A DNA stretch of 64,000 bases from Patiria miniata. Its lineage: Eukaryota. Shown here piece after piece: positions 1 through 53,100 of the stretch. How positions within the stretch are numbered: position 1 is the first letter of the stretch; every line of letters starts with the position of its first letter. Made by a program: the position numbers and the translations under genes. The notes below the pieces were generated by a model. That model had not been told where the DNA came from. It made no database searches and saw nothing but the letters and a program-made list of their open reading frames with translations. The stretch lies in assembly GCF_015706575.1 (NCBI RefSeq), contig NW_024037060.1, positions 1,073,983 through 1,137,982 on the forward strand, given 5' to 3'.

Positions 1-672
1 ATTTGCGTATGCACGCGCTGCTGCTCCTGATCGGATGAGCTGTAGTATAGAATCGATTTGAACAAAAATGAATTCGATTTGTACTCCCAGTACCAGTACT
101 GGAGCCGAGTACCGAGTCCAAAACCAACGAGTCCGTGCCAAAATAATCGAATACGGGCCGAGTCCAAATAATTTTCGAGTAGGCCGATCGAGTGCTTGCG
201 TGTAGTACTCGAGTTGTACAACACTGCTAATTTTTGGGCAACCGCTTGACATTGAGCAATCTCACCCATTTAATAATGGGATGGTCCAACTATTAAAGAT
301 ACTAGTGGCAGCATGGCAGGCGCGGCGCAGGCAGCACGGTACAGCACAGGCGCGGCTGTGTGAGTGTTGATCCGACCATCCGACGAAATGTCAAAGTTTT
401 CCGTCATTCAAATAGTCATACTCTTTCCACACATTGAACTAAAATAACTGCTAAATGTGTTTTGTAACCAAAGCTTCGGCAAATACAATATCTTATTACA
501 ATTAGGGGCCTACATGCAATTAATTATTTGTGAAGGACGGTGGAATCGCAGGGCGGCCTCGGACTGGTTTTGTACACACGGTAGGCCTACGTACTGCTGT
601 TTGGCATGTTTAGATGATGTGCTATATTCTGTACGAATCTCGTGATCCGGCCATTCAACCTTTTTTTAAGGC

Positions 673-1670
673 TGTTGTGCCCATTCTTGAAAATCACGCA
701 TTCTCGAGAATGGGCGCGCATTCTTAAGAATGAGCGCCCATTCTTAAGAACGAGCACGCGTTCTTAAGAATGAGTGCTCATTCTTAAGATTGGGTGGGAA
801 TATCACGTGCACAATTTATGAATTTTGCCCAATCTTAACAAACATTGCACGACATAATTATGTTAAATGAATTGTATAGCGGTTAAAAGGGAAACAATTC
901 ATATAAAGAGGAAAGAAAATGTTCTATGCTTCTGTACTCGTAAAACTACGATAATTTGAATCAAATTAAACCTGTTATTATTGCTTTTTTTCTGCCCACT
1001 ATGGGAAGTTTTGTAATAACGGAGGACTGGGAACTAGTCTGGGAAGTGCTTTGTTTAGGCTAAACAAGTTACAAGTCCCTGCATGTATCATATGCGTGCC
1101 ACGAAAAAAAAACGATGTCCAGAAGCTGCCAAAATTGCTCTTTTGACTAGATAGAATCCAGCTCTGCGACGTTATGGTGGGGTGTGAACAATAAATTGGT
1201 GGCAATTTAAATGGGAAATAGCATTAGCACTATGGGATGTCGCAGTATTCATTCTCATTCTTCACATTCTTCATTCTTACGTCCCCCCCCCCCCCCCCCC
1301 CCCCCCGCTTTTATTATCCCAAAAATCAGAATTCTTCGAACTAGTATTATTATGTCTCTTATTTTTTCCCGCTCCCCCCCCCCCCATATCAATACGCCTT
1401 TAGTTATCATATTCCACTCTACTTTTCAGCGCCTTGCGTTGCAACAGTATAATTATTGAGAATCAGTGAACGAGGATTCAGCTAGACTTGCCAAGCGCAG
1501 CCGGTGCTCGGCATCGACAAGACCGTTATCTTGTCGCGCATACTCAAGAATGTGCGCTCAATCTGGAAGAGTTATTTTTTGCCAAGATTGAGCAAGGATC
1601 CAGTTGCACATTCTCAAGAATGTGCATGCCCATTCTCGAGAATGCGTGATTTTCAAGAATGGGCACAACA
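673..1670. mobile_element. 998-bp non-autonomous TIR DNA transposon in the P1 upstream region (absent from P2-P4)
   Basis: Perfect terminal inverted repeats of about 43 bp (TGTTGTGCCCATTCTTGAAAATCACGCATTCTCGAGAATGGGC); subterminal palindromic CATTCTTAAGAATG repeats; 4-bp TSD AGGC (669-672 and 1671-1674); the empty site ttttttaaggcgattgtg is present in P2. Confidence 0.75.
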
Positions 1671-1904
1671 AGGCGATTGTGTAGGCCTAGGCGCAAGGCT
1701 ATACATGTATAGTTATTTCATCATAGTAGTACAGTGCAGTGTCCACCGGCCCCCTCTATCTTTTGGTCCTAAGACGACTGTGCCAACATGCACGCCTAGC
1801 ATGTCTGACTAAGCCTGACTTGCTATTGCGGCTTAATTTCCTTTCCTTAAATTGATCTTTGTTTTGTTCTAACCGGTTGTTTACATTTTAAAACTTTCTC
1901 CAAT

Positions 1905-2149
1905 TCTTTCAGTTTCAGCTCAGTGACGTGCCATGCGTGTGGGTGGTAATCAGGTTATGAACTGCCCACCTCTTTCAAGGGTCCTGCAAAAAGGATGTGG
2001 CAGGCTGCAGGCAGAGGCAGTCGCTACGTCTTAATTAATGTCACCCTTGCTGCATCTGGTGCAGATGTCCTGATATTACCAACAAATCCCACGCAGGTTG
2101 AGAGACCGCTAGTCACGACACTAGTTTTAATTGAACACATCAAGTAACC
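1905..2149 (+). promoter_or_regulatory. Conserved proximal promoter/5'UTR block of the + strand paralogs, containing TGACGTGCC (CRE-half/ACGTG)
   Basis: About 250 bp immediately upstream of the ATG is near-identical in P1, P2 (23110-23353) and P3 (34205-34442). In P4 (44170-44633) the same block is interrupted by a 208-bp insertion and the motif reads TGATGTGCC. Confidence 0.3.
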
Positions 2150-2414
2150 ATGGCAGAAACCGACGCCCTGTTGTCGTACGTATCACCCAAGGATTCACAC
2201 CCAAGCTTGACCAAATACAATACTGTCAATGGGGACAGCCTTAGTGCGGAGACCCCATCTCCTGTGACGAACAGCTTGAAGAATGAGAGGGGAAAGCCCA
2301 TGGCAGCAGAACACGTGGTGTACAAAGCAAGGTGGTTCATTCTGGCCGTCTTCTCGCTACTTTGTATGTTGCAAGCAGCAACGTGGAACACATGGGGTCC
2401 CATCGCAGACACAG
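2150..2414 (+). CDS. SLC49-family MFS transporter (DIRC2/SLC49A4-like) paralog P1, exon 1/11
   Basis: Kozak aaccATGG at 2150; GT donor at 2415-2416 (phase 1); encodes MAETDALLSYVSPKDSHPSLTKYNTVNGDSLSAETPSPVTNSLKNERGKPMAAEHVVYKARWFILAVFSLLCMLQAATWNTWGPIADT (TM1). Confidence 0.8.
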
Positions 2415-2877
2415 GTTTGTCACACAATTTCACCAGTCTGTGCTGACAGGAGAGTTGTAACCAAGTCATTTTTGTCCTAGTCAAGTCAAGTCACAAGTCA
2501 CATATTTTCAAGTCAAGTCAAGTCTCAAGTCATTTTTTTCCAGAGTGAAGTCGTCTCAAGTAAAAAAAAGTAGTGACTTGAGTCCGACTCGAGTCCAAGT
2601 CAGCGACTCGAGTTAACAACACTGGCTGACAGCGTTAGCAGAAAATGTCTGATCTAACCCAGTAACCGCAGAATCCTTCGTTACGGGATGTAAACATGTG
2701 TATAATCCAAAATTCCTCTCTAACCCGTAAAAATAATTTGATTCCTTTTAATTCTAGGACCTACCTATAGATCTGGAATTATATTGTGTACATAATATCA
2801 GATTTTCGATTTACTTATAAGCTTCATTGATTGTAATGCATGATTTTAAACCTAATTCTTCATCATCTGATTTCTAG

Positions 2878-2988
2878 CCAAGGTTGTGTTGGACTGGACG
2901 GATGGTGACATAGCCCTGTTGGCCAACTGGGGTCCCATTGCATTCGTAATCACCTGCTTTTTCTTTTCCTATCTACTTCTCATCAAAG
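2878..2988 (+). CDS. P1 exon 2/11
   Basis: ttctag|CC acceptor, AAAG|gtaaga donor; 111 nt; AKVVLDWTDGDIALLANWGPIAFVITCFFFSYLLLIK (TM2). Confidence 0.8.
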
Positions 2989-3442
2989 GTAAGAAATTGT
3001 AGCACAATAATCTCATGGTTTTCATGTCGTGTTTTGTGAAATTTGTTGTTTTTATGAGAGCTACCTTGTGGGGTACTTGCACAAATGGAACAATGGTGCC
3101 GTATTTGTGTCTGCCGGTTGTTGTCTAACGGTGCCCAGAAGGGAAATTCTAAAGAAGAAGAATAAGAGTAGAACAATGCAAGACCCATAAGCCTCATCTA
3201 TAAGGTTGGGTGTAGGCCGGTGCAGGGGAGGGGGGGGGGTAGTTTGGGGCAGTATAAGGTGTTAACATCCCTCCCTCCTAAAACAGACAAAATTTGAATG
3301 GAAAAAAAAAAACGCACTTCCCTTTGAAAATAATTTTTAGAACACATGCTTTAAAGACATTATATAGCGTTAACATGTTTGAAACTCACGGAAATAGTGC
3401 AAAATAATTCATCAGCTATCTGTTTCTTTTCGTGTCCTGCAG

Positions 3443-3533
3443 GTCTCAGGTTTTTCGTATTATGCAGTTCCTTGATCTTCCTATTGGGAGTCACTATACG
3501 GTGCATTCCTGTCGGTGTAGAAAACGTGAAGTG
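3443..3533 (+). CDS. P1 exon 3/11
   Basis: ctgcag|GT acceptor, AAGTG|gtaaga donor; 91 nt; GLRFFVLCSSLIFLLGVTIRCIPVGVENVKW (TM3). Confidence 0.8.
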
Positions 3534-3795
3534 GTAAGAAAAATTATGAAGGCACAAATTGATTAATTTTCTATTTTTTTTATGAGATGGAAATAGATTC
3601 TGTTTCGTCCACGGGCTGCGAGAAACTAATCATTAGCTTACTTAGGTGGGACTTGAACCCAGGACCTCCTGGACTAGTGCAGATGTCTCAACATGACTAC
3701 GTTGTAGTACCATATTCAAACCATGGAATATTCATTGTCACATTGTAAATTGTCGTCTTAGATTCATTAAATACCTGTTTTGTGTTTTATCCAAG

Positions 3796-3996
3796 GACAA
3801 TGAATGCTGGCCACGTTTTAATTGGCATAGCTAGTCCTGTTATGATGTCAGCACCAACTGAATTATCAGCGGTCTGGTTCCCGCCTCACCAACGGACTAC
3901 GTCCACAGCCATTTCTTTGACCTCAGCAGGTTTTGGCATGTCCATGTCGTTTCTGGTGGGGCCATTAGTGGTCACAAGTCTTCCGCAAAATGCAAG
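3796..3996 (+). CDS. P1 exon 4/11
   Basis: ccaag|G acceptor, GCAAG|gtagta donor; 201 nt; ...[55 protein letters not shown] (TM4-5). Confidence 0.8.
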
Positions 3997-4254
3997 GTAG
4001 TAACCTTACCTATTTGGTTAGTTTCACGTTTGATCTTTTTTTAGAGCAACTGATCTTTGGAAAGAGAACTAATTGAAATCAATTGTCTCTTTTGACAATG
4101 GAAAAGAAGGTTTACTTTTGTTAAATTGAAGAATTATGAATTGTTAAAATGTTCCTCTTAATATCGCTAAGCTGTTACCAAATAATGTTTTTGTTGAATA
4201 AAAAAAAGAAGAAAAAAAAGACACTGCATTGTAACAGTGAATATTTGGTTTCAG

Positions 4255-4328
4255 TTCAAATGCAGAATCCATAGACCCAAAGGAGAAAGCACTGTACTTC
4301 AATGAGATAATGAAGTTAATGTATATAG
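4255..4328 (+). CDS. P1 exon 5/11
   Basis: tttcag|T acceptor, ATAG|gtatgt donor; 74 nt; SSNAESIDPKEKALYFNEIMKLMYI (cytoplasmic loop). Confidence 0.75.
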
Positions 4329-4595
4329 GTATGTACAAACTGTTGTCTTTCCAAAAAGTTACAGGGCTTAATGTTTTGGTCGTAGTAAAACTTCAGTTAA
4401 GGCAAACAGAATGTTGCCTGTAACAAAGATCTAACTGTATTTCAGTAAGTAAGCAGTCTGCAGCAATTTAGTCTTTTAAATATTCGTTGTCAGATTTGAT
4501 TCCAAAAAGGGAGGCTTCGTGATTTGTTTTTAATTTTGTTGAAGTTGAAAAAAAAACCATAAAAGACTTCCCTGAAAAGTCATTTGACTGTTGAA

Positions 4596-4722
4596 CCCAC
4601 TGCTGTTCCGGATTTAAACCAGCCGGAAACCAAACCAACCAAGGTGGTCGAGTGATTAAACATGATTGCGCTTTTAACCAAAATGTTGTTGGCTCAAGTC
4701 CCACCTGAGCAAGCTTGAGGCT
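4596..4722. mobile_element. tRNA-derived SINE-like relic (D-arm-like GTGGTCGAGTGATTAAAC, T-arm-like GGCTCAAGTCCCACC) in intron 5; orthologous in all + paralogs
   Basis: The same element sits at 26160-26290, 36850-36990 and 47095-47230. No acceptor-stem pairing, so it is not a functional tRNA. A second relic (GGGTTCAAGTCCCACC on the minus strand) is in intron 3 (3640-3700 and paralogous sites). Confidence 0.4.
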
Positions 4723-4869
4723 TTTATTTTCTGACTAGTCGCCAGACAGTGTTTAGTGTATATAAATTGCTGCGAGTGCCTATTAAATAACATTGGGGAA
4801 GGGTGAAACCTAATGTAAACAATAGATATTACACACATTTGTATTATTTGTTTTCATTTGATGTTTCAG

Positions 4870-4999
4870 AATGTGGAGCTGTGGCCGTCGTGGTCATCGC
4901 GGCTCTATTGTACTTCCCTGAGAAGCCACCAACCTCGCCCAGCTTATCTGCCACCAAACCTCGGGAAAGCTTCAAAGATGGAGCCCTGAAGATGATCAA
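4870..4999 (+). CDS. P1 exon 6/11
   Basis: tttcag|AA acceptor, ATCAA|gttagt donor; 130 nt; ECGAVAVVVIAALLYFPEKPPTSPSLSATKPRESFKDGALKMI (TM6). Confidence 0.8.
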
Positions 5000-5169
5000 G
5001 TTAGTCTTTAGACAACTGTCCAAAAATTGAAAGAAGAAAACTTCATTTTCAATTTTTTAAGAAACATGCTTTAATTCAATCAAGTGTCAACACGTATTAA
5101 TCATAATCCTTAACTCTGAAACAGCTAAAGATTAAAAGAGTCCCATTTTTGTTGAATATTTGATTAAAG

Positions 5170-5281
5170 GAGCACCCATTTTTGGATTCCTGCGGCAGCC
5201 TACAGCATATCATCTGGAGTTTACAGTGGCTGGACCACGCAAATGGACACAATTTTCAAGAATACTCTGAATATAGGACAG
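5170..5281 (+). CDS. P1 exon 7/11
   Basis: ttaaag|G acceptor (an alternative AG lies 3 nt downstream), GACAG|gtaaca donor; 112 nt; KSTHFWIPAAAYSISSGVYSGWTTQMDTIFKNTLNIGQ (TM7). Confidence 0.7.
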
Positions 5282-5454
5282 GTAACAATCACAGTATTCA
5301 AAATTATTTATAATCGCTGAAAGTTTTGTTTAGTACAAGTGCGGCACTGTCCAATATGCTATGCTATGTCTCTGTTGAGTTGTGCTTAGCTGTGTTGTGT
5401 GATTTAGCCATGTTAGCGGATGAATTTCTAATATTTGGGTGGGGTTTTTTTCAG

Positions 5455-5522
5455 GACACTGTTGGTTGGATTGGATTCATCTCCAATATTGCCGGGATGC
5501 TGGGAGGCTTGATAGTTGCAAG
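5455..5522 (+). CDS. P1 exon 8/11
   Basis: tttttcag|GAC acceptor, GCAAG|gtgagt donor; 68 nt; DTVGWIGFISNIAGMLGGLIVA (TM8). Confidence 0.8.
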
Positions 5523-5979
5523 GTGAGTGGTGCAACAGTGTCACAAAAGTTTCACTTCAGTAGAAAAAATTGCTCCTCGTTGAGCTTTGGTCCCAATGGA
5601 GGATCAAGGAGGGCGCTGGGGGGGGGGGGGGCTTAGTCCCCTTAAACTCTCCAGTAAGGTTAAAAAGTCTGGATCTTAAGCTCTGACATTTTGTAGTTTA
5701 CATGTATGTGCCTGGGTTGGTCTACCTTTCCACTCCCCATTTTATAAAATGTACCAGTCCATTGACCTGTGTGGTTAGATTAGGTGGGTGATAAGGCATA
5801 CAGGATCACCAGGTCAGTGCCACGCTCATGTAGATGGTCACACAGGGTGAAAGTTTTCCATATGGTGGGTTAAAAATCCTCGAAAAAATCATGCATTCAG
5901 ATGCTGATCTGGATCACTTCCAAATGAAATTAACTATTATTAACTATTTTATCTCTCCTTGTTTTTGTGACTTCACCAG

Positions 5980-6098
5980 ACTTGTAGACATCCTAGGCGG
6001 TAGGATGAAGGCAGTATTGATTTCACTCACCCTGGCAGCCTTCGTTAGCTGTGTATGGTGTGTCCTACTCTCAATGAAGTATATCTCATACAGTTTAG
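5980..6098 (+). CDS. P1 exon 9/11
   Basis: tcaccag|A acceptor, TTAG|gtgagt donor; 119 nt; RLVDILGGRMKAVLISLTLAAFVSCVWCVLLSMKYISYSL (TM9). Confidence 0.8.
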
Positions 6099-6463
6099 GT
6101 GAGTAACATGAGATAGTGTCGAAAAAAATGTAATGCGCACTTTTTATGTAAGTCGTGTGTGCTTCAACTTCAAGTTGAGATTATCTGAAAGATTGTGAAA
6201 TTGAAGCAGATACGGGCAAATTTCTAACAGGGGTGCAGAGTTTCGAAATTTTCAGGTTGTTTTATTTATCTTAAAAAGCTTCATAAGAAAATGTGAACAC
6301 CCCTAATAAAAAAATATGAAATATGACAGTCACCCAGGTTTTACAAATGTTTTAAGCTTATATCAGACATACATTGCAAGTGTTTTCAATGTTTATTTTT
6401 GGGAATTGTTTATTGGACATTCACCTATATTTGATTCTGTGATTTGTTTCTCTTTGGTTGCAG

Positions 6464-6646
6464 TGAGTGTCTACATTGCATGTATCTTCATTGGACTTTT
6501 CATCAACGCCTCCTTCCCCATATACTTTGAGATCACGGTCGAGGGCATGTATCCTGTCTCGGAAGGCAACATAACAATGGTGATGACATTCCTGACCAAT
6601 GTGGTTTCTGTGATATTCCTGTTGCTGCCGATGATTCCAAATCTAA
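6464..6646 (+). CDS. P1 exon 10/11
   Basis: ggttgcag|TG acceptor, CTAA|gtaagt donor; 183 nt; VSVYIACIFIGLFINASFPIYFEITVEGMYPVSEGNITMVMTFLTNVVSVIFLLLPMIPNL (TM10-11). The acceptor was chosen by homology to P5, since the ORF reads through upstream. Confidence 0.75.
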
Positions 6647-6823
6647 GTAAGTTCAAAATTCTGAAATAACTGAGGCTGCTACCACCGTCACAATGGACTC
6701 AGTGCGCAAACAAGAGAGGGCGCTTTTTCTACCACTTTTGAGAGCCATGTGGACGGGAGACATCATGTGCCCGTTCTGGTTCATGCACCTGCAGCATGAA
6801 GGAGGCATGACTAGTTTTGTTTT

Positions 6824-7098
6824 CAGGGGCTGATCCAGAACACAATTTTTTTTGGGGGGGGGCCAAAAAAATGTTGGTCCCCAAAAAGTGGGTCCAAGAA
6901 TATAACTGTGTGGGTTTTGGGGACCGCTTAAGGGCCCCCCCCCCCCCCCAATTTTTTTTTGGATTTTAGTGGTGTGATCTGTGGTGCGATCTGAGGCAAT
7001 TTTCTGACCACTTTGACCCAATTTTTTTGAGGAAAAGATGGTGGTGTACGCAGTGCCTGCCTTTATGACCCCCCCCCCCCCCCCCGGATCTGCCCTTG
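6824..7098. mobile_element. MITE family A (TIR CAAGGGCGGATCCAG, G/C homopolymers) in P1 intron 10; the copy is orthologous in P1-P4
   Basis: Terminal CAGGGGCTGATCCAG ... CCGGATCTGCCCTTG; the same insertion site occurs in P2 (28500-28713), P3 (39393-39670) and P4 (49414-49731). Confidence 0.7.
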
Positions 7099-7837
7099 TT
7101 TATTTTGAATATGCATATAGCAGGGTTCGACCTTAGCGGTGGTCCGCTGGCCAAATGCCAGTTGAATTGCCGGCGGACCAGCTGAAACACCTTGCCAAGT
7201 GGTCCGGCTGGCCAGCTGAAAAAATCTGCGTCAAAAAAATGCTTGTTGTATTTATTTGGTTTCTTACTTACATTCGCTATTTTTTCAAAAGAAACCTCTG
7301 TTATTTTTACAAATTTGCTTCGCGATATGACGACTTCGCAATTCGATGTCACGGTGACTATAATCATGTGCGTAATCCAGCCCAATGCGGCGATGACTGG
7401 TTCCCGCCGCGCCAATTTAGAAGACATCATGATGAAAATGCGGTAACTATTCTGTGCACGGCTATGCGATCGATAGAGCATGGCTATGCATCGTGCTCTG
7501 TCAACTGGTCGGATTCGACATCGAAAAAATGCCAAGAAAACACTTATGGAGAAAGAACATTTTTGCAAGTTAATTTTATACAGAATTGAACTAGCTTGCC
7601 TGTGTATGTATTTTCTGTGTTCAAGAGTTCATTTTGAGAACGCATTACTCGTATTTGGAGTGATACATGCCGTGTGTTTCCCGAAATTTTTGACCGTGAA
7701 AACGGGTCTGTCGGCCCATGGTGGGCCGCTTGCCACACACGCACGCATCACACACCTCGGAGTTTTGGCCAGCTCCCCACGTCTTGACTAGCATTGTGCA
7801 TATGGTGCGAACGACCTGAATTTTCCATTATTTTTTG

Positions 7838-8249
7838 GGTAATCCTTACTTTTAGGACCCCTTTCCTATATAAGGTTAAAAGACTCACCAACACAGCTGA
7901 CTAAATGACACTCAAAAGTGACATTCTGTTATTTCTTGGCACATTTGAACAGTTGGCAATGACACCTCTTGAATATCAGCAGGTTTGATTTTGTAGAAAG
8001 AGGGCAGGGTTTTGATTTATGAGGGGACGATGACAAACAGAAAATAGATTTAAAAAGCAAGATGGCGAACTGCAAAAAAAGGTAGGAAAGTCACTTTTTC
8101 TTTCAAAATAATAACTAACATGAGTTTGTTAGAAGAAAAAAGACTTCTTTAGCCTGCAAAAGTCACTTTGGTACTGGACAGTCATCTGCAAAAGTCAGTT
8201 TTGAACAGAACTCGTACAAAATAGAGGTGTCCTAAAAGTAAGGATTACC
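7838..8249. mobile_element. MITE family B (21-bp TIR GGTAATCCTTACTTTTAGGAC)
   Basis: Perfect 21-bp inverted termini at 7838-7858 and 8229-8249; AT-rich flanks; TSD ambiguous. Confidence 0.55.
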
Positions 8250-8561
8250 ATTTTTTTGAAATTATCGAACGTAAATATATTGACAATAATTAAAAGTAGG
8301 TTTTATTCACTTTTTGTCGCCATTTCGTGTATAGCTTTCGTAGTGCAATGAAAATAGTTCAGGCTAATACTTCGCATATAAATAATTGAATACCCCATTC
8401 AATCTGCATTAAAAAAATTGGCAAAAAAAAGAATACTTTCCGACCAACCGACCCTATTTTTGAAAGGCATGTAATCGGAAGCAGAACTATATTTTTTTGG
8501 CCTAATTAAGGTAGGTTTTATTCACTTTTTGTGGCCATCATTTTGTGTATAGCTTTCGTAG

Positions 8562-9037
8562 TCAAGGGCGGATCCAGGGGGGGGGGGGCATCCCCCCCCC
8601 CCCAAAAACGAAACCAATTTTTTTTTTTTGTATGTGACATTGCAATAAAGGCAGGCAATGAGTACACCACCATCTTTTCCTCAAAAAAAAATTGGTGAAA
8701 GTGGTCAGAAATTGCCTCAGATCGCAGAGCATCTAGAATCCAAAATGTTTTCGGGGCCCTTAACCCTTAATACCAAAACGAAACCAATTTTTTTTTTTTT
8801 TTGTATGTGACATTGCAATAAAGGCAGGCAATGAGTACACCACCATCTTTTCCTCAAAAAAACATTGGTGAAAGTGGTCAGAAATTGCCTCAGATCGCAG
8901 AGCATCTAGAATCCAAAATGTTTTCGGGGCCCTTAAGCGGGCCCCGAACCCCACGCCGTAATTTTTTTGACCCACTTTTTTTGGGGACCACAATTTTTTT
9001 TGGCCCCCCCAAAAAATGTATTCAGGATCCGCCCTTG
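8562..9037. mobile_element. MITE family A copy, opposite orientation, with an internal roughly 150-bp duplication
   Basis: CAAGGGCGGATCCAGGGGG...CAGGATCCGCCCTTG; inserted into the second copy of a local roughly 250-bp tandem repeat (8270-9230), whose first copy gives the empty site. Confidence 0.65.
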
Positions 9038-9675
9038 TTTGTATTACAATGAAAATCAATCAGGCTAAAACTTCGCCTACTGAGGCCTAATTGAATACCC
9101 CTTTCAAGCTGCATAAAAAAAAATTGGCCAAAAAACCCCCAAAAATCCGACCGACCAACCCTATTTTTAAAAGGCATGTAATCTGAGGCAGAACTTTATA
9201 TTTTTTTTGCGGCCTCAGATCATGGAGGAAGAAAATAGACCTCTATTGCTCAGGTGACATGGGTGTTGACTATAGTCTAGTTATAACTTATGTGAAACTG
9301 ATTAACTGGTGGGTACACGCTGTATAAGACGGACCAGTCAAAAACCTGGCAGACCAGTCAAAATTCTAGCCAACTGGTCCGGCTGGCCAGTCAAAAAAAA
9401 AGTTAAGGGCCATGTCATCCCGCATGAGCGTCAGGCGTCAGCAATGCATTGGAATGTCTCTCCCAGTGGTCTCCCCCAACTCTGCCCTTCTTACCGTTGA
9501 GGGGGTACTTGTGCACAGAGCCCGTAGACTCGCCCATTATGCCCTGCCCAATTTTGTTTCAACCAATCACAGCCTTAAAGTCTAGCAACAAGTCCAATAA
9601 GTCCTCAGCAAATTTTTGTACTGAGTAGCTGTATGAAATTGTGTTGGTCATTGATATTTTCCTCTTTGTTCGCAG

Positions 9676-9806
9676 GTGTGATTTGGATGAACTGGCTCCT
9701 TCTAGGTTCCCGCTTTGTGTGCTTGCCTCTCCTCATGATGTATAAGGAGCATTATAATCGTCTGGATGAAGATATGACGGAAGTATCCAGAGAGGATAAC
9801 AAATGA
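9676..9806 (+). CDS. P1 exon 11/11 (terminal, TGA 9804-9806)
   Basis: ttcgcag|GT acceptor after a 3.0-kb intron 10; SVIWMNWLLLGSRFVCLPLLMMYKEHYNRLDEDMTEVSREDNK* (TM12 plus tail). Total CDS 1485 nt, 494 aa. Confidence 0.75.
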
Positions 9807-12420: not shown

Positions 12421-12424
12421 GTGA

Positions 12425-24363: not shown

Positions 24364-24423
24364 TAAGCTCCATTGATAGTAAACCATGATTTTAAACCTA
24401 ATTCTTCATCATCTGATTTCTAG

Positions 24424-41878: not shown

Positions 41879-41884
41879 TACGTT

Positions 41885-42005: not shown

Positions 42006-42094
42006 ACAAACATTCGTTATTTGTATAATATCGTTGTTTATTGTCATAACAAGAGAAAAAGAAAAAAGAAGATTTTATCCATGCGAACTAACGC

Positions 42095-42564
42095 CACTGA
42101 TCTCTATATAAAGACTGGATAGCTAATAAAGAGCTGCACAATGAATGAATTTGACGCCAAATTGGTGAGACCGGCTGGTGATCTACAAAGGACAAGTTGC
42201 CGTCTTTATAGACAGCATGATTTCTTTTGTAACGTCGCGGTTCACTTGACTTATATTTTGGCCACCACCACTGACCAACTGACCAAGGTTTACTACAATT
42301 TTTCTAACGTCGTGGTTACTTTTATAATGCCGCAAATCACTTTTTCGGCGTTTTTGAAATAATAATCACTACGGAAATGTGTCCCTTTTAGAACATCATA
42401 ATATGTGTACGTGACCAAAATGCGCGTCAACTGTTGATACAACGCGCGCGTATTTACGCGTAGAACGTTCGTATTATACGCGGCCATCTTCGTGAGACCG
42501 GGGGCGTCTACTGTGTTAATGTTGTATGCATATCCGCTATCCAGTCTTTATATAGAGATCAGTG
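42095..42564. mobile_element. 470-bp TIR element with 8-bp TSD ACTAACGC (hAT-like MITE) in the spacer after P3
   Basis: Perfect 29-bp TIR CACTGATCTCTATATAAAGACTGGATAGC; TSD at 42087-42094 and 42565-42572; the P1 equivalent (11470) has the single site gcgactaccgcagcc. Confidence 0.7.
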
Positions 42565-44378
42565 ACTAACGCAGCCATTGTTTAATATAACAACAATTTA
42601 TAACATTTTTAAACACCTTGCAAAGCAATAATGCCGTACATTTTTTTTAGTATTGTGCTGGAGAATTTCACTTTATTTATTAAGTAAACGCTTCAGATTT
42701 CAAATATGCACTTGTTATTTTTCAAGGCTGGGTTGGGGCAAGGCTTTGAAATGATAAAGCAAATAATTCTGCGCAAAAAGTACTGCATTTATTAATGTTA
42801 ATCGCGAAAAATTAATATTAACAAAGTTCATAAAGTACAAATGATACCAGTTGGTATGAATAAAACATGGCCATTTGCTTTTACTACCAAAATTTCAGCA
42901 TATTGTACGCATCAGTTCTGTATGAGTGAAGTACAAATGATACCAGTTGGTATGAATAAAACATGGCCATTGCCAGTGCTTTTACTACCAAAATTTCAGC
43001 ATATTGTACGCATCAGTTCTGTATGAGTAAATTTAAATAAACGCTTTTAATGAAAACCATTTGCTAAAATCTGATTAGTTTGCTGCACTATAAGCGTTAC
43101 TTCGTTTCATACGAATAATAAAAAGGAGTATATATTTGCTGCAGAGTTCAACTAATATATTTCAAAGCTGTGGCTTCCTTGAAGATATAAAAGCAAATAC
43201 GTTTGCGCAAAAACTACTACGTTTAAAAATGTGGATCGCGAAAAATTAATATACAAAAGTTCATAAAGTACAAATATTACATAATACCATATATCGTATG
43301 AATAAATACTGGCATTTGCGTATGCACGCGCTGTCGCTCCTGATCGGATGAGCTATAGTACAGAATCGATTTAAACAAAAATGAACTCGATTTGTACTCC
43401 CAGTAATTATATACTGGAGCCAGTACCGAGTCCAAACCAACGAGTCCGTGCCAAAATTAGCACAAAGACTCGAGTACGGGCCGAGTCCAAATAATTTTCG
43501 AGCAGTCGGGCCGATAACTTTTGTGTAGTTCTCGAGTTGTACAACACTGCAAATTTTTGGCAACAACTTGACATTGAGCAATCTCACCCATTTAATAATG
43601 GGATGGTCCAACTATTAAAGATCAAGGCAAAGCCGGCCGGTCGCGCCACAGGCTAGGCAGCGCAGCACGTACGTACAGGCGCAGCTATATGTCAAAGTTT
43701 TCCGTCATTCAATTTTAGTTACTCTTTCCGCACATTGAACTAAAATAACTGCTAAATGTGTTTGTAACCAAAGCTTCGGCAAATACAATATCTTATTACG
43801 ATTACATGCAATTACTTGTGAAGGACGGTGGAATCGCAGGGCGGCCTCGGACTGGTTTTGTGCACCGGTACTCGGTAGGCCTACGTACTGCTGTTTAGCA
43901 TGTTTAGATGATGTGCTGTATATTCTGTACGAATCTCGTGATCCGGCCATTCAACTTTTTCAAGGCGATTGTGTAGGCCCTATAGACTATTTCATCATAG
44001 TAGTACCGGTACAGTGCAGTGTCCACCGGCCCCTCTATCTTTTGGTCCTTAGGACGACTGTGCCAACATGCACGCCTAGCATGTCTGACTAAGCCCGACT
44101 TGCTTGTGGCTTAATTTCCTTTCCTTAAATTGATCTTTGTTTTGTTCTAACTGATTGATTGTTTACATTTTAAAACTTTCTCCAATTCTTTCAGCTTAGT
44201 GATGTGCCATGCGTGTGGGTGGTAATCAGGTTATGAACAGCCCAGCTCTTTCAAGGGTCCTGCAAAAAGGATGTGGCAGGCTGCAGGCAGAGGCAGTCGC
44301 TATGTCTTAATTAAAGGCACCCTTGCTGCATCTGGTGCAGATGTCCTGATAACCAACAAATACCACATAGGTTGAGAA

Positions 44379-44586
44379 ACCCCCGGACAACTTGTGAATG
44401 GAACATCCTCCCACCAGACGTTAGAGCTCAACCTGACATCAAATAATTCAAAGAGAGACTGCATCAAATAAATATGGATGAGCTGGTCAAAAAAGCTCAT
44501 TACAAAATTTAATCACCACTGCCACACTGACCTATACGTTATACCACCATCTGCAGTGTTTGCATACTATCCAGCAGAAGCAGAAG
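44379..44586. other. 208-bp P4-specific insertion 48 bp upstream of the ATG
   Basis: P1-P3 read ggttgagagaccgctagtcacg; in P4 ggttgaga|aacccccggacaacttgtgaatgg...cagcagaagcagaaga|gaccgctagtcacg. Confidence 0.6.
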
Positions 44587-44633
44587 AGACCGCTAGTCAC
44601 GACACTTGTTTCAATTGAACGCATCAAGTGACC

Positions 44634-44897
44634 ATGGCAGAAACCGACACCTGTTGTCGAGTGTAGCATCCAAGGATTCACACCCAAGCTTGACCAAATA
44701 CGATACTGTCAATGGGGACATTCTAAGTGCGGAGACCCCATCTCCTGTGACGAACAGCTTGAAGAATGAGAGGGGAAAGCCCATGGCAGGAGAACACGTG
44801 GTGTACAAAAGAAGGTGGTTCATTCTGGCCGTCTTCTCGCTACTTTGTATGTTGCAAGCAGCAACGTGGAACACATGGGGTCCCATCGCAGACACAG
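44634..44897 (+). pseudogene. P4 exon 1, disrupted: canonical ATG 44634 followed by a 1-bp deletion and in-frame TAG (codon 11)
   Basis: gacgccctgttgtcg changed to gacacctgttgtcg; exon is 264 nt versus 265 in P1; downstream homology (SKDSHPSLTKYDTVNGDILSAE...WNTWGPIADT) continues in the +1 frame. The next in-frame Met is at ...GKPMAGEH... just before TM1. Confidence 0.55.
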
Positions 44898-45377
44898 GTT
44901 TGTCACACAATTTCACCAGTTTGTGCTGACAGGAGAGTTGTAACCAAGTCATTTTTGTCCTAGTCAAGTCAAAAGTCACAAGTCATATATTTTCAAGTCA
45001 AGTCAAGTCTCAAGTCATTTTTTCCAGAGTGAAGTCGTCTCAAGTCAAAAAAAGTAGCGACTTGAGTCCGACTCGAGTCCGAGTCAGCGACTCGAGTCAA
45101 CAACACTGGCTGACAGCGTTAGCAGAAAATGTCTGATCTAACCCAGTAACCGCAGAATCCTTCGTTACGGGATGTAAACATGTGCATAATCCAAAATTCC
45201 TCTCTAACCCGTAAAAATAATTTGATTCCTTTTAATTCTAGGACCTACCTATAGGTCTGGAATTATAATTTATATTTTGTACATAATATCAGATTTTCAG
45301 TGTACATACTTATAATAAAAGCTCCATTGATTGTAATGCATGATTTTAAACCTAATTCTTCATCATCTGATTTCTAG

Positions 45378-45488
45378 CCAAGGGTGTGTTAGACTGGACG
45401 GATGGTGACATAGCCCTGTTGGCCAACTGGGGTCCCATTACATTCGTAATCACCGGCTTTTTCTTTTCCTATCTACTTCTCATCAAAG
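45378..45488 (+). CDS. P4 exon 2/11 (gene possibly pseudogenic or N-truncated)
   Basis: 111 nt; AKGVLDWTDGDIALLANWGPITFVITGFFFSYLLLIK; AG/GT intact. Confidence 0.55.
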
Positions 45489-45940
45489 GTAAGAAATTGT
45501 CACACAATGATCTCATGGTTTTCATGTTGTGTTTTGTGAAATTTGTTGTTTTTATGAGAGCTACCTTGTGGGGTACTTGCACAAATGGAACAATGGTGCC
45601 GTATTTGTGTCTGCCGGTTGTTGTCTAACGGTGCCCAGAAGGGAAATTCTTAAGAAGAGGAATAAGACTGAGAAGAACAATGCAAGTACCAATAAGTCCC
45701 ATCCATAAGGTGAGGTGTTGGTGAAGGGGGGGGGGGGGGTAGTTTGGGGCAGTATAAGGTGTTGACATCCCTCCCTCCTAAAACAGACAAAATTTGAATG
45801 AACCAAAAAAAGTCTATTCGAAAATGATTATTAAAAAACATGCTGGTTTAAAAGACATTAAATGGTGTTAACATGTTTTAAACTCACGGAAATAGTGCAA
45901 AATTATTCATCAGCTATCTGTTTCTTTTCGTGTCCTGCAG

Positions 45941-46031
45941 GTCTCAGGTTTTGCGTATTATGCAGTTCCTTGATCTTCCTAATGGGAGTCGCTATACGGT
46001 GCATTCCTGTCGGTGTAGAAAACGTGAAGTG
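45941..46031 (+). CDS. P4 exon 3/11
   Basis: 91 nt; GLRFCVLCSSLIFLMGVAIRCIPVGVENVKW. Confidence 0.55.
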
Positions 46032-46325
46032 GTAAGAAAAATTACGAGGGCAAAAATAGATTATTTTTCTATTGTTTTTTTTTTTTATGAGGTGGAAATA
46101 GATTCTGTTTTGTCCGCGGGCTGCGAGAAACTAATCATTAGCTTACTTAGGTGGGACTTGAACCCACAACCGCCTGGACTAGTGTAGATGTCTCACCACT
46201 CTCCAGGATTGGCTGAGATGGTTATCTCAACATGACTAGTACTTATTAAAACCATGGAATATTCATTGTCACATTGTAAATTGTCGTCTTAGATGATTAA
46301 ATGCCTGTTTTGTGTTTTATCCAAG

Positions 46326-46526
46326 GACAATGAACGCTGGCCACGTTTTAATTGGCATAGCTGGTCCCGTTATGATGTCAGCACCAACTGAATTATCAGC
46401 GGTCTGGTTCCCGCCTCACCAACGGACTACCTCCACAGCCATTTCTTCTACCTCGGCATTTTTTGGCATGTCCATGTCGTTTCTGGTGGGGCCATTAGTG
46501 GTCACAAGTCTTCCGCAAAATGCAAG
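46326..46526 (+). CDS. P4 exon 4/11
   Basis: 201 nt; homolog of P1 exon 4. Confidence 0.55.
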
Positions 46527-46783
46527 GTAGTATTTTTTTAGTTGGTTAGTTTCAGGTTTGATCTTCTTTTTTAATGCAACTGATCTTTTGAAAGAGAACT
46601 AATTGAAATCAATTGTCTCTTTCGACAATGGAAAAGAAGGTTTACTTTTGGTAAATTGAAGAATTAAGAATTGTCAACCTATTCCTCTTAGTATCTCTAA
46701 ACTGTTGCCAAATAGTGTTTTTGTTGAATTAAAAAAAAGAAAAAAAAAGATATTGCATTGTAACAGTGAATATTTGGTTTCAG

Positions 46784-46857
46784 TTCAAATGCAGAATCCA
46801 TAGACCCAAAGGAGAAAGCACTGTACTTCAATGAGATAATGAAGTTAATGTATATAG
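46784..46857 (+). CDS. P4 exon 5/11
   Basis: 74 nt. Confidence 0.55.
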
Positions 46858-47392
46858 GTATGTACAAACTGTTGTCTTTCAAAAAAGTTACAGGGCTTAA
46901 TGTTTTGGTCGTAGTAAAACTTCAGTTAAGGCAAACAGAATGTTGCCTGTAACAAAGGTCTAACTGTATTCCAGTAAGTAAGCAGTCTGCAACAATTTAG
47001 TCTTTTAAATATTCGTTGTCAGATTTGATTTCAAAAAGGGAGGCTTCGGAATTTGTTTTTAATTTTATTGAAAGAAATCCATCAAAAACTTCTCTGAAAA
47101 GTCATTTGACTGTTGAACCCACTGCTGTTCCGGATTTAAACCAGCCGGGAAACCAAACCAACCAAGGTGGTCGAGTGATTAAACATGATTGTGCTTTTAA
47201 CCAAAATGTTGTTGGCTCAAGTCCCACCTGAGCAAGCTGGAGGCTTTTATTTTCTGACTAGTCGCCAGACAGTGTTTAGTGTATATAAATTGCTGCGAGT
47301 GCCTATTAAATTACATTGGGGAAGGGTGAAACCTAATATAAACAATAGATATTACACACATTTGTATTATTTGTTTTCATTTGATGTTTCAG

Positions 47393-47522
47393 AATGTGGA
47401 GCTGTGGCCGTCGTGGTCATCGCGGCTCTATTGTACTTCCCTGAGAAGCCACCAACCTCACCCAGCTTATCTGCCACCAAACCTCGGGAAAGCTTCAAAG
47501 ATGGAGCCCTGAAGATGATCAA
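47393..47522 (+). CDS. P4 exon 6/11
   Basis: 130 nt. Confidence 0.55.
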
Positions 47523-47692
47523 GTTAGTCTTTAGACAACTGTCCAAAAATTGAAAGAAGAAAACTTCATTTTCAATTTGTTAAGAAACATGCTTTAATTC
47601 AATCAAGTGTCAACACGTATTAATCATAATCCTTAACTCTGAAACAGCTAAAGATTAAAAAAGTCCCATTTTTGTTGAATATTTGATTAAAG

Positions 47693-47804
47693 GAGCACCC
47701 ATTTTTGGATTCCTGCGGCAGCCTACAGCATATCATCTGGAGTTTACGGTGGCTGGACCACGCAAATGGACACAATTTTCAAGACTACTCTGAATATAGG
47801 ACAG
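47693..47804 (+). CDS. P4 exon 7/11
   Basis: 112 nt. Confidence 0.5.
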
Positions 47805-47974
47805 GTAACAATCACAGTATTCAAAATTATTTATAATCACTGAAAGTTTTGTTTAGTACAAGTGCGGCACTGTCCAATATGCTATGCTATGTCTCTGTTG
47901 AGTTGTGCTTAGCTGTGTTGTGTGATTTAGCCATGTTAGCGGATGAATTTCTAATATTTGGGTGGTTTTTTCAG

Positions 47975-48042
47975 GACACTGTTGGTTGGATTGGATTCAT
48001 CTCCAATATTGCTGGGATGCTGGGAGGCTTGATAGTTGCAAG
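47975..48042 (+). CDS. P4 exon 8/11
   Basis: 68 nt. Confidence 0.55.
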
Positions 48043-48620
48043 GTGAGTGGTACAACATTGTCACAAAAATTTCACTTCAGTAGAAAAACATTGCTCCTCG
48101 TTTGAGCTTTGGTCCCAATGGAGGATCAAGGAGGGCGCTGGGGGGGGGGGGAAGGGGGGGGGGGCTTAGTCCCCTTAAACTCTCCAGTAAGGTGAAACAG
48201 TCTGGATCTTAAGCTCAGAATTTTTGTAGTTTACATGTATATGCCTGGGTTGGTCTACCTTTCCACTCCCCATTTTATAAAATGTACCAGTCCATTGACC
48301 TGTGTGGTTAGATTAGGTGGGTGATAAGGCATACAGGATCACCAGGTCAGTGCCACGCTCACGTAGCTGGTCACACAGGGTGAAAATTTTCCATATGGTG
48401 GGTGAAAAATCCTTGAAAAAAATCATGCATTCAGATGCTGATCTGGATCACTTCCAAATGAAATGATTCGTACTTGTACCAAGGACCACCCCTAAATGAG
48501 TGATGGCAGGAGTATGCCATCGAATAGTAAGACAATTCTTATTTGGCAATGCGTTTGACAAATTCCAGTCTTCACTCTTGTTAACTATTTTATCTCTCCT
48601 TGTTTTTGTGACTTCACCAG

Positions 48621-48739
48621 ACTTGTAGACATCCTTGGTGGTAGGATGAAGGCAGTATTGATTTCACTCACCCTGGCAGCCTTCGTTAGCTGTGTATGGT
48701 GTGTCCTACTCTCAATGAAGTATATCTCATACAGTTTAG
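48621..48739 (+). CDS. P4 exon 9/11
   Basis: 119 nt. Confidence 0.55.
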
Positions 48740-49065
48740 GTGAGTAACATGACACAATCTCGAAAAAAGTGTAATGCGCACATGTATTTTTTATGTGAGT
48801 CGTGTGGGCTTCAACTTCAAGTTGAGATTATCTGCAAGATTGTGAAATTGAAGCAGATACGGGCAAATTTCTAACAGGGGTACAGAGTACAATGTGAACA
48901 CCCCTAACAAAAAAAACCCGAAATATGACAGTCACCCAGGTTTTACAAATGTTTTAAGTTTGTACCAGACATACATGGCAACTTTTTACAATGTTTATTT
49001 TGGGGAATCGTTTATTGGACATTCACCTATATTTGATATGATGATTTGTGTCTCTTTGGTTGCAG

Positions 49066-49248
49066 TGAGCATCTACATTGCATGTATCTTCATTGGACTT
49101 TTCATCAACGCCTCCGTGCCCATATACTTTGAGATCACGGTCGAGGGCATGTATCCTGTCTCGGAAGGCAACATAACAATGGTACTGACATACCTGAACA
49201 ATGTGGCTGCTCTGATATTCCTGTTGCTGCCGATGATTCCAAATCTAA
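49066..49248 (+). CDS. P4 exon 10/11
   Basis: 183 nt; ...VPIYFEITVEGMYPVSEGNITMVLTYLNNVAALIFLLLPMIPNL (more diverged than P1-P3). Confidence 0.55.
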
Positions 49249-49413
49249 GTAAGTTCAAGATTCGGAAATAACTGAGGCTGCTACCACCGTCACAATGGGC
49301 TCAGTGCGCAAACAAGAGAGGTCAATATTTCTACCACTTTGGACGGAATACATCATGTGCCCGTACTGGTTCATGCACCTGCAGCATGAAGGAGGCATGA
49401 CTAGTTTTATTTT

Positions 49414-49731
49414 CAAGGGCTGATCCAGAACACAATTTTTTTTTTTGGGGGGGGGGGGGGAAACGGTGGTCCCCAAAAAGTGGGTCCAGGTAAATAACTG
49501 CGTGGGGTTCGGGGCCTGCTTAAGGGCCCCAAACATTTGTTGGATTCTAGTGGTGTGATATGTGGTGCGATCTGAGGCAATTTCTGACCACTTTAACCCA
49601 ATTTTTTTGAGGAAAAGAAGGTGGTGTGTGCAGTACCTGCCTTTATTGCGATGTTTGCCTTTTGCCGACGTTTTTAGTGCCTGCCTTTATGGCCCCTGTT
49701 GCCCCCCCCCCCCTTCCCGGATCTGCCCTTG
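49414..49731. mobile_element. MITE family A copy (P4 intron 10)
   Basis: CAAGGGCTGATCCAG...CCGGATCTGCCCTTG. Confidence 0.6.
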
Positions 49732-50007
49732 AATGTGCATATAGCCATGTCATCTTGCGCGAGCTTCAGGCGTCGGTAATGTGTTTGGAAGGCTTCCAGT
49801 GATCTCCCCAACTCTGCCCTTCTTACCGTTGAGGGGGTACTTGTGTACAGAGCCCCTCGACTGACCCATTAAGCCCCGCCCAATTTTGTTTCAACCAATC
49901 ACAGCCTTGAAGTCTAACGACAAGTCCAACAAGTCCTCGGCAAGTTGGTGTGATGAGTAGCTGTATGAAATTGGTTTGGTCATTGATATTTTCCGCTTTG
50001 TTCACAG

Positions 50008-50132
50008 GTGTGATTTGGATGAACTGGCTCCTTCTAGGTTCCGTCTTCGTGTGCTTGCCTCTCCTCATGATGTATAAGGAGCATTATAATCGTCTGGATG
50101 AAGATATGACGGAAAGTATCCAGAGAGGATAA
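50008..50132 (+). CDS. P4 exon 11/11 (TAA 50130-50132)
   Basis: 125 nt; tail ...MMYKEHYNRLDEDMTESIQRG*, the same as P3. Confidence 0.55.
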
Positions 50133-53100
50133 CAAATGATATTGTCCTCTTCTAGGGCTGTGCATGTTCAAATAATTTCATATTTGATTATTCTAACTTG
50201 GATTGATTGAATATTCAAATATTTGAAATGCACCGATCAAAATTAACAGCCACTTGAATTATCATGTTTTTAATTCATAATTTTCTCTCACTAAGTAAGT
50301 TATGAACTTGCCAATGAGACGTTGCACACAAATCTTCTGACAGTATTAAGGTTAAGTTTGAATTGGAGTGACTTGCTCCCAAGTTTTGACAGTTCTATAT
50401 CCCCCTGGACTGTGTAGAGTACTAAGTGTAATACAGCATTATTACATTTAAAAAGTACATTTTTCCCCCCACAATTAGTGGGTATGTGGAAGACTGACGT
50501 ACTAATTTTGAAACTCATATTTGCTTGTATTCCCACATACTTCTCAACCAAGAAGTATGAAGGCATTATTTTATATATTTTGATAATTATTCAATGAAGT
50601 GAGATTGATATTTGTTTTAATATCAACTAACTTGTAATTAATAGAATGTCTGTGAAGGGTTGGGTTTGTAAGAAAATAATATTTTATGTTATGAATATTA
50701 CATGAACACCTGTCCAAGTTTGTAGTATTGTTATCTCACAAGCTCTTGGAAAGCACTGAATATATAACAATTATATAACAATGATATTTAAAATTTCAAG
50801 ATATTTGCACATATCTACATCAAAGGTGTTATTGATCAAAGGTGTTATTGATATTTACATGTAACAACTATCACTCAGGACACCGGTAAAGTCAATACAA
50901 TTAATACACAATGTATATAGGTCCACATTTTTAATATTGCAATGAATGTTGACTTTTGTGGCTTCATATAGTATGCTACTGCATTTCCAATAATATAAGA
51001 AGGTGTTATAGGCAGTGATTACGTATCATAGGTGGTTCGTTCTAAAATTTTACACATTTATACAAACTTTTTATAATTTTTTTTCCAGCAATGTACATTG
51101 ATAAAGATGATACTCGTTTTTCATGTGTATAATGCTTGAAATTAGAAATGCTGGCATTTCTACCATGACTGTAAATTTAATTGGTATATTTTTTAAATTT
51201 AAAACAAATAGTCGACTTTTATCCAATTTCTCGTCACTCCAATCGTGATTGATGCCTTATGCCGTTGAATTTAATGTAAACTTTTCATTCTAGACGGTTT
51301 GACACAACTCATGTAAATACGGGTAAAATTTTGGTGGTTTTTGTTAGATGATTATTTGAGTTATGATTAATTGTATTTCCTTTTGTAGTACGTATATGTG
51401 GCAATTTTGGTGAAACTTCAAAACCGATTGTTGCACTAAAACATTTTTATAAAATATCAACTGGAAATCAAGTCTTTCACATACTGCCATGTTTTATTTA
51501 AATGTCAGTTATTTTGAGGATAGTCATAAATTAACATGAAATCATACGGTGGGCAGAAAAGTGATTGCACTTTATTATTATGTCAAAATTTGACATTAAC
51601 GTATCGGTTTTCTTTGAAACTGCCAGAGAAAAAGAAAGGAAATATTAAGATTCCATTCAAGTATGTGGACTAACAGCCATTTTTGAATCGTAGTGATAAA
51701 TTAATATTTATAACATTTTTAAACACCTTACAGTGCCTTAATACACATTTTTCTTAATTTGTGCTTGGAATTAAATCGATAAATCTCGAATAACAACTTC
51801 AACAGTAGCTGCATTTTCAACGCACTGTCTTAAGATTAAGAATCTTACGATTAACCACAACGGTACTAATTAAATACTAATTAAAGTTTGCATTGTTTGC
51901 AATCAACACATAGTTTGAACATAATAAATTCTTGGGAAAAATGTTGTATTCAATGTCTGCGTAAATATATTTTCACAAATCTTGAAAACATATTGACATC
52001 GATTAAAATTTAGGTTGCACAACACGGTTCTTGGAAGATTTAGTAATTGTAAACACATTAAAGTTACTCTCTTTAACAACTTCGATTTTGTTTTTTAAAA
52101 TAGAATTCATGTTTTAAATTAAAATAAAACTAACATTTTCTATTTTTCTTTTTCGACGACTGCAACCCTCCGATTTGTTTTTTTTTTCTTTTTGACTTTG
52201 GGTAGCTTTAGCTCTTAACGTACAAAAAAAATCCGGAAGAATTATTGTCAATCGCAAAAAAAAATCGAAATTTGTAAAGTAATTATTCCATAACACTACA
52301 CGTCAACTTGATATATTTTCGTTTGGTGTCTCATTCAAAAGTAAATAACTTTTGCATTTCCAGGAAAAGAGCAGTTTGAAATACAAATCTATTTTCTGGT
52401 CACAATGAACTCGAAAATGGCACGGGAAAGGTCATTTTGTCTTAAAATGAGACCATTATTTCAAAGGTATGACTAAATATAATACATGCATGTCAGTGCT
52501 TCAGCCTCCAAATTGTGTACATTAAGACAGTGCCAACCCATTTACAATGTGACATGACACTGCAAAAAGTTCCAGTGTGTTATATATAAGTTATAACTAT
52601 AACTTGGAAATCTGTATTATAAGTGCCAACAGTAAATTCAATGCTTAAAGGAAAGATTGAAGAGCGTCATATTCCCGACAAATAGGAAATTGAAATTGTC
52701 ACCGGCCCAAGTTTTATTTCAGTTATTGGTACCTTACCGCACCCATACAAAGGAAGACAAAAGTAGACGGAAAGGATTAAAGAAGATCGTCGAAGTTGAG
52801 TTATTTATTTTAGCCCTTCTTTTTTTTTCTTTTCTTTTTAAAGTACATGTAACATAAACTGCTGCCGAAAGGGCTTTATATAGTAAAAAGTTGTTTTGAA
52901 ATAGTGCCTTCATCATCAGGCGTCGTCTTCACCCAACTTTTCCGATTTTTTCACGGCTATTTTGCTAGTATGCTAATGTTTTGCACTCACTTTGGAAAAA
53001 TCCTGGCTTCAACTATGCTTATTATCAGTGGTGGAAGAATCGACATTTTTGTTATTTGTGATTATGTAGTAAAAACAGTAGCTGCAGCCTGAGTCAACAA

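Follow-up and report, generated by a model that had tools for sequence, protein, structure and literature searches.

Several well-described loci combine tandem duplication with exchange of sequence between the copies. The human RCCX module on chromosome 6 (C4-CYP21-TNX) is a multi-gene block that was copied in tandem and then subject to short-tract interlocus conversion, and whose flanks and junctions record the modular structure. Concertedly evolving tandem families, like the primate gamma-globin pair, the red/green opsin array and RHD/RHCE, have gene bodies and introns far more alike than their flanks, carry short mosaic tracts, and undergo conversion that stops near the ends of shared homology, and in satellite higher-order repeats the unit types alternate, so that one true period spans several basic units. 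All these traits recur in the subject of this report, an array of four transporter genes, P1 to P4, in the sea star Patiria miniata. The array lies in a stretch of 64,000 nucleotides (NCBI RefSeq assembly GCF_015706575.1, contig NW_024037060.1, positions 1,073,983 to 1,137,982 of the forward strand), called the window below and used for all coordinates, with about 40% G+C and no N or gap. We consider it likely that an SLC49A4/DIRC2-type MFS gene expanded in tandem in this lineage, with duplication of a two-gene block and gene conversion thereafter.

Self-comparison by blastn and a repeat search of the window recover an 8-10 kb unit present four times on the + strand, together with the pairing of spacers that the initial annotation of this DNA had anticipated. 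In a splice-aware search, 11-exon models of the four genes match four P. miniata proteins exactly, so that all members of the array are already annotated in RefSeq:

P1, coding sequence (CDS) 2150-9806, + strand: SLC49A4/DIRC2 homolog with 11 exons; XP_038058424, 494 amino acids (aa), C-terminal tail TEVSREDNK
P2, CDS 23354-29136, + strand: XP_038058425, 485 aa, tail TEVSREDNK; exon 1 has a 33-bp in-frame deletion
P3, CDS 34443-40068, + strand: XP_038058418, 494 aa, tail TESIQRG
P4, 44634-50132 (RefSeq CDS 44783-50132), + strand: XP_038058426, 442 aa, tail TESIQRG

The long open exons, roughly concatenated, match the Pfam family MFS_1 at E=8e-12 (PF07690 is also precomputed for these RefSeq proteins) and, in a protein search, "solute carrier family 49 member 4 homolog [Patiria miniata]". 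SLC49A4 or DIRC2 is the name of every annotated match from echinoderms, molluscs and vertebrates, Latimeria SLC49A4 (E=1.6e-52) included, although the vertebrate protein and the sea-star genes share only ~34% identity. On such similarity, P1-P4 are assigned to the SLC49A4/DIRC2 branch of MFS transporters. The function, lysosomal H+-coupled export of pyridoxine, is known only for the human protein (PMC9719028).

Spacers and the block junction

The spacers behind the genes alternate between two types, A after P1 and P3 and B after P2 and P4, just as first described:

Spacer A1, 11376-12118, + strand: pairs with A3
Spacer A3, 41460-43313, + strand: with its own, private insertion of 1.05 kb (41519-42563) and, at 42833-43028, a 101-bp tandem duplication
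Spacer B2, 31804-32611, + strand: pairs with B4
Spacer B4, 51555-52368, + strand: pairs with B2 and faces the 3' end of a convergent fifth gene

The self-blastn matches that define the pairs join 11474-12397 to 42564-43589 and 31804-32611 to 51555-52368, and after pairwise realignment the substitution divergence is 3.5% between A1 and A3 (22/634) and 4.3% between B2 and B4 (34/799). Two type-B strings occur in the window only in the B spacers, GTGTGGACTAACAGCCATTTTTGAATCG at 31914 and 51663 (chance expectation 0) and CCAGAGAAAAA at 31874 and 51623. Type B had been regarded as a diverged version of type A, which holds for the first ~210 bp (11368-11577 against 31804-32025 and 51555-51772, 73-78% identity) but not for the remaining 540-590 bp, where no similarity between A and B was detected. 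Its position opposite the 3' end of the convergent fifth gene makes B4 the probable native flank of the array on the 3' side. Spacer A, which runs into the repeat found upstream of each gene from the first visible base of that repeat, was probably formed when an older duplication joined the first ~210 bp of the native flank to distal upstream DNA.

The upstream repeat, termed the boundary repeat in the initial annotation, is present in four states, one of which adjoins the candidate duplication junction:

P1 upstream repeat, 1-679, + strand: 5' end cut by the window start
P2 upstream repeat, first part, 12119-12397, + strand: the rest split off by a 10.2-kb insertion
P3 upstream repeat, truncated, 32706-33069, + strand: starts at unit position ~170-181 and lacks positions 293-429
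P4 upstream repeat, 43314-43973, + strand
Putative block-duplication junction, 32612-32700, + strand: 89-bp filler, unique within the window

The P1 repeat matches 12119-12397 over positions 1-267 (91%) and 43314-43973 over positions 1-679 (84%), and its segments 181-292 and 430-679 match 32706-33069 in front of P3. The initial annotation took the repeat at the end of type A to be full, whereas the repeat is visible here only from window base 1. Type B joins this repeat partway, as had been noticed: B2 ends at 32611, the 89-bp filler follows, and the repeat is entered at unit position ~170-181 from ~32700-32706. This succession of B, filler and upstream repeat occurs once, B4 continuing instead into unrelated DNA, and spacer B and the upstream repeat have no homology across the join. 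With such a non-homologous junction and its filler, the block duplication was not the product of unequal crossing-over between misaligned repeats; a better fit is amplification by end joining or by replicative template switching.

The copied segment would have run from ~170 bp into one gene's upstream repeat to ~810 bp past the next gene, which makes a two-gene block the simplest unit. A last amplification of a block of about 21 kb had been proposed; the copying of a block stands, but its ancestral size comes down to ~17 kb, the value that our own subtraction of copy-specific insertions leaves for each of the present blocks (32.4 kb and 19.7 kb). That the two spacer pairs have diverged to a similar degree fits the prediction from one duplication event and, together with the A/B/A/B pairing and the single novel junction, supports a presumed two-gene block duplication. 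The upstream repeat of P2 (12119-12397) has an affinity opposite to the block pairing, differing by 3.8% from P1's copy and by 12.8% from P4's.

Mosaic structure of the gene bodies

The mosaic originally suspected in the array rested on one homopolymer indel set against the spacers, and therefore needed an independent test. The tails do pair as reported, TEVSREDNK being common to P1 and P2 and TESIQRG to P3 and P4, but as evidence for a mosaic the pairing is thin, for one frame-shifting indel of 1 bp in an A-run (GGAAAG in P3/P4, GGAAG in P1/P2) accounts for the whole difference. The P3/P4 frame is probably ancestral, because the Acanthaster planci protein ends in ...ESSIQN. XP_038058623 (P0002), a further P. 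miniata relative encoded on the same scaffold outside the window and 89-92% identical in aa sequence to P1-P4, ends in TESISKEDNK, that is, in the ...EDNK frame of P1/P2 reached through a different indel 3' of TESI, so that the extended tail either arose twice or was exchanged. An intron-8 segment, the other discordant character, is indeed confined to P2 (27494-27597), P3 (38386-38489) and P4 (48467-48570), but it measures 104 bp instead of about 120 bp, and its lack at 5929/5930 is private to P1 and compatible with every tree.

For the gene bodies (P1 coordinates 1805-11375), the four units were aligned with MAFFT after removal of the 10.2-kb insertion, and only four-base columns in well-aligned neighbourhoods were kept (6113 columns). 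Among 517 variable sites, 58 are parsimony-informative, and they divide into 24 for P1P3|P2P4, 18 for P1P2|P3P4 and 16 for P1P4|P2P3 (31:20:15 with a second alignment method). Adjacent informative sites agree above the permutation level (p=0.002), with ~27 partition switches along the unit, and shared patches of several sites are visible in the alignment, e.g., at 3662-3680, 4565-4716, 5661-5708 and 10870-10910. Clean shared indels conflict in the same way (four for P1P2|P3P4, three for P1P4|P2P3, one for P1P3|P2P4). All three partitions thus occur, in place of the uniform topology that would have spoken against a mosaic. The tree of the spacers is ((P1,P3),(P2,P4)) and that of the gene bodies ((P1,P2,P3),P4) with a fine mosaic on top, and one tree cannot fit both. 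The pairing of P1 with P3 and of P2 with P4 does not extend to the gene bodies, a mismatch explicable by later conversion, so that the higher-order repeat is not apparent in the genes themselves.

Could successive duplications without any exchange produce such a pattern, the conflicts being due to parallel mutation, alignment error, or uneven rate or constraint? The discordant characters first listed are weak (a 1-bp homopolymer indel and one private indel), and 14 of the 58 informative sites lie in CpG context, both of which would suit this explanation. Parallel hits, however, are expected to yield only ~3.5 informative sites (maximum 11 in 2000 simulations), and neither the multi-site shared haplotype patches, the stability of the result under a second aligner, nor a patchiness found in P4 but not in P1-P3, and persisting in introns, is what it predicts. 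With no single tree for spacers and gene bodies, exchange-free descent is contradicted by the results and highly improbable. Interlocus gene conversion among the array copies, one of the two processes initially suggested, is instead supported by these alignments, and gene conversion is the apt term since single crossovers could not make an internal patchwork. In a simplified, home-made permutation of longest runs in the manner of GENECONV, some pairs reached p=0.0006-0.003, but the top runs mostly reflect clusters of P4-private sites, which act as a confounder; the tests of partition clustering and heterogeneity were relied on instead.

Divergence along the unit sets P4 apart. P1, P2 and P3 are mutually ~3% (2.5-4%) apart over the whole unit, with evenly spread private differences (p=0.08), whereas those private to P4 are uneven when taken alone (p=3e-30), in a contingency test against other singletons (p=8e-12) and in non-exon columns (p=5.5e-16). 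P4 is as close as the other copies at P1 coordinates 2418-2965, 4379-6045 and 10955-11207, and 5-14% away at 2966-4378 and 6046-10954, which in P4 correspond to the following tracts:

P4 young tracts: 44901-45465, 46908-48686 and 51144-51397
P4 old tracts: 45466-46907 and 48687-51143

Selective constraint is ruled out as the cause of this patchiness because it affects one copy only and holds in introns. P2, for its part, differs by ~3% from P1 and P3 and, over most of the gene, by 5-12% from P4, becoming P4-like only beyond the 3' untranslated region (3'UTR). Its divergence from P1 is 2.5-5.8% through the gene, 5.8% in the last 0.9 kb of the 3'UTR and 27% just past it, a sharp rise by which the flanks are far older than the gene bodies, as in concerted evolution.

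In exons 3, 4 and 10, P4 has residues in common with XP_038058623 and A. planci where P1-P3 share derived ones, a polarity unchanged with a second aligner. Exon 10 (P1 6464-6646) holds seven derived residues common to P1-P3 within ~35 codons, its strings reading SFPIY...MVMTFLTNVVSV in P1-P3 and SVPIY...MVLTYLNNVAAL in P4 and the outgroups. It is conceivable that the copies were near-identical at the time of the block duplication and that P4 later imported its diverged tracts from a distant paralog outside the window. No conversion of P2 would then need to coincide with the duplication, and P4 is in fact nearer to XP_038058623 (92.4% aa identity) than P1-P3 are (89-90%). Yet no suitable donor was found: the 90% protein cluster of the best match has only P1-P4 as its four members, exon 10 by itself holds 5 residues at which XP_038058623 and P4 differ, and the fifth gene of the window is only ~55% identical. 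Since plain ancestral retention accounts for P4 states that also match A. planci, import from outside seems unlikely, and conversion within the array is preferred.

Whole-CDS dN/dS between copies is 0.5-1.0, typical of young duplicates; a reading as positive selection was rejected, the range denoting relaxed constraint or mild diversification instead of demonstrable selection. A bolder proposal, on the whole rather unlikely, is that conversion spread a new functional allele through P1-P3 (exon 10 together with exons 3 and 4), and that a foldback element at 30562-31803 set the 3' limit of exchange in P2. The derived cluster of P1-P3 falls in exon 10, a transmembrane region, and P4 keeps the ancestral form while also losing its N-terminus. 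The element coincides precisely with the point at which P2 ceases to be P1/P3-like and becomes P4-like, and may have acted as a heterology barrier or a break site.

Private insertions and neighbouring genes

Insertions of at least 100 bp, whether within the gene bodies or between them, are in each case private to a single copy, the principal ones being:

P1-private miniature inverted-repeat transposable element, 680-1669, unstranded: 65-bp inverted ends, target duplication AGGC, empty site intact in P2 (22890) and P4 (43973)
P1-private insertion in intron 10, 7120-9408: 2.3 kb
Insertion of repeat elements between P1 and P2, 12398-22573, unstranded: 10.2 kb, splitting the P2 upstream repeat
P2-private foldback element, 30562-31803, unstranded: 1.24 kb, 21-bp subrepeats in inverted arms (x30 and x18.5), 8-bp target duplication AGAAAAGT

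Such privacy resembles that of insertion polymorphisms and raises the question of an assembly artefact, in which P1-A-P2-B and P3-A-P4-B would be two haplotypes of one two-gene locus misplaced in tandem. The spacers of the two blocks differ by only 3.5-4.3%, a range that allelic divergence in echinoderms can reach. As alleles, however, P2 and P4 should be as near to each other as P1 and P3, and the 5-12% that separates them, with P2 ~3% from both P1 and P3, does not agree with this. Nor do the uninterrupted window sequence and the four distinct RefSeq proteins, and the junction consists of a unique filler and a truncated upstream repeat, not an overlap or a gap. Misassembly is thus quite unlikely, and a genuine tandem array remains the preferred reading.

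The foldback element, at first sight a satellite array of a 21-bp unit behind P2, was recognised as a foldback-type transposon from its inverted ends and target-site duplication; its termini are complementary at 56/60 positions, and the empty site is found in P1 and P4. Within the 10.2-kb insertion, inverted repeats of ~650 bp (12442-13080 and 19247-19903) delimit a unit of ~7.5 kb. The insertion has no open reading frame above 160 aa and is probably made of nested non-autonomous transposons. A ~1-kb element 5' of P3 (33072-34102) has a 17-bp subrepeat arrayed in inverted orientation at either end. MAFFT had aligned 680-1680 with 33089-33983 as if P1 and P3 had one upstream insertion in common, a candidate dismissed after sensitive blastn resolved two unrelated elements (680-1669 and 33072-34102) inserted at essentially one spot, which may be an insertion hot spot. 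Being unrelated, they provide no character for the block pairing. A ~230-bp repeat resembling a short interspersed element occupies an equivalent position within intron 10 in each of the four genes (6843-7078, 28504-28694, 39417-39641 and 49414-49654), with further copies in the enlarged intron 10 of P1 (8583-9037), in the 10.2-kb insertion (15849-16105 and 20681-20966) and in intron 8 of P3 (38167-38394).

At its 5' end, P4 has lost 1 bp 17 nt past the canonical ATG (44634), at codon 6-7, which explains why its RefSeq model is shortened to a start at 44783, the only one possible and ~50 residues short. A P4-private 210-bp insertion lies ~50 bp 5' of the canonical ATG (window 44375-44650). These lesions may be an early step towards pseudogenisation.

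Beyond B4 lies the fifth gene:

Diverged fifth SLC49A4 paralog, 53181-60290, - strand: convergent with the array, all 11 exons found by tblastn

It looks intact, shares ~55% identity with P1-P4, and is missing from the P. miniata matches of the protein search. Its tblastn identity to A. planci P0006 (59% aa in exon 1, 76-92% in exons 2-11) is the ground on which it is taken as the ortholog of that gene. With it, the SLC49A4 paralogs of P. miniata number at least six. The position of the array is held in A. planci by a single gene (P0003/P0004), from which the array appears to be a Patiria-lineage expansion. One intron of the fifth gene carries a (CCCAG)x30 microsatellite (57905-58053), and a K/S/P/T-rich open reading frame of 141 aa on the - strand (63489-63914) may be an exon of an unrelated neighbour gene. 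Rfam and tRNA scans of the whole window returned no matches.

Proposed history and comparison with known systems

The history that would best accommodate these data starts from an older duplication yielding a pair Pa-A-Pb-B, in which B would be the native downstream flank beside the convergent fifth gene and A the first ~210 bp of that flank followed by more distal upstream sequence. The ~17-kb block, from ~170 bp into the Pa upstream repeat to ~810 bp beyond Pb, would next have been copied once in tandem through a non-homologous join with 89-bp filler, giving P1-A-P2-B-P3-A-P4-B. Since then, and probably before too, many short interlocus conversions would have affected the gene bodies, introns included, making P1, P2 and P3 a uniform star ~3% apart. 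In the process P2 would have lost its Pb-type sequence from the upstream repeat to the end of the 3'UTR, overwritten by Pa-type sequence, while P4 would have been overwritten in patches only. The spacers and the copy-specific transposon insertions would lie outside, or interrupt, the shared homology, and the record of duplication would for that reason be kept there.

Some observations sit uneasily with this history. The P1P3|P2P4 partition has no significant excess in the gene bodies (24 vs 18 and 16), which leaves ~1.4 kb of spacer and one junction to carry the case for the block duplication. Copy number and junction are read here from the assembled sequence, and the window begins, at base 1, already inside the P1 upstream repeat. 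Moreover, P2 is equidistant from P1 and P3 (~3%), at about the level of spacer divergence, so that P2, if it was converted wholesale in one event, must have been converted soon after the duplication. Given this equidistance and informative patches of tens to hundreds of bp, we infer that many short tracts fit better than one large event.

At this locus, duplication history (in spacers, junction and private transposons) and exchange (in gene bodies) can be read separately. Gene trees of these paralogs will not mirror the order of duplication, and orthology calls and dN/dS across the array are unreliable. The human homolog of this transporter carries vitamin B6 out of lysosomes, and the expansion specific to Patiria may interest those who work on nutrient handling in echinoderms. 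The general view of how tandem gene families evolve is unchanged by it, for concerted evolution of this classic kind, in a tandem family of few members, is a well-known phenomenon of which the array is a new instance.

Against the background of the known systems, the array departs from the globin, opsin and RH families in belonging to another gene family and another phylum, and in having a member, P4, that is only partly homogenised and bears a 5' frameshift. Its likeness to satellite higher-order repeats is an analogy of terms only, since it comprises just two periods of protein-coding units of 8-10 kb. The closest structural analogue is the RCCX module, from which it differs in two respects: its junction is non-homologous with filler, and the two genes of its block are paralogs of each other, so that conversion can act within blocks as well as between them.

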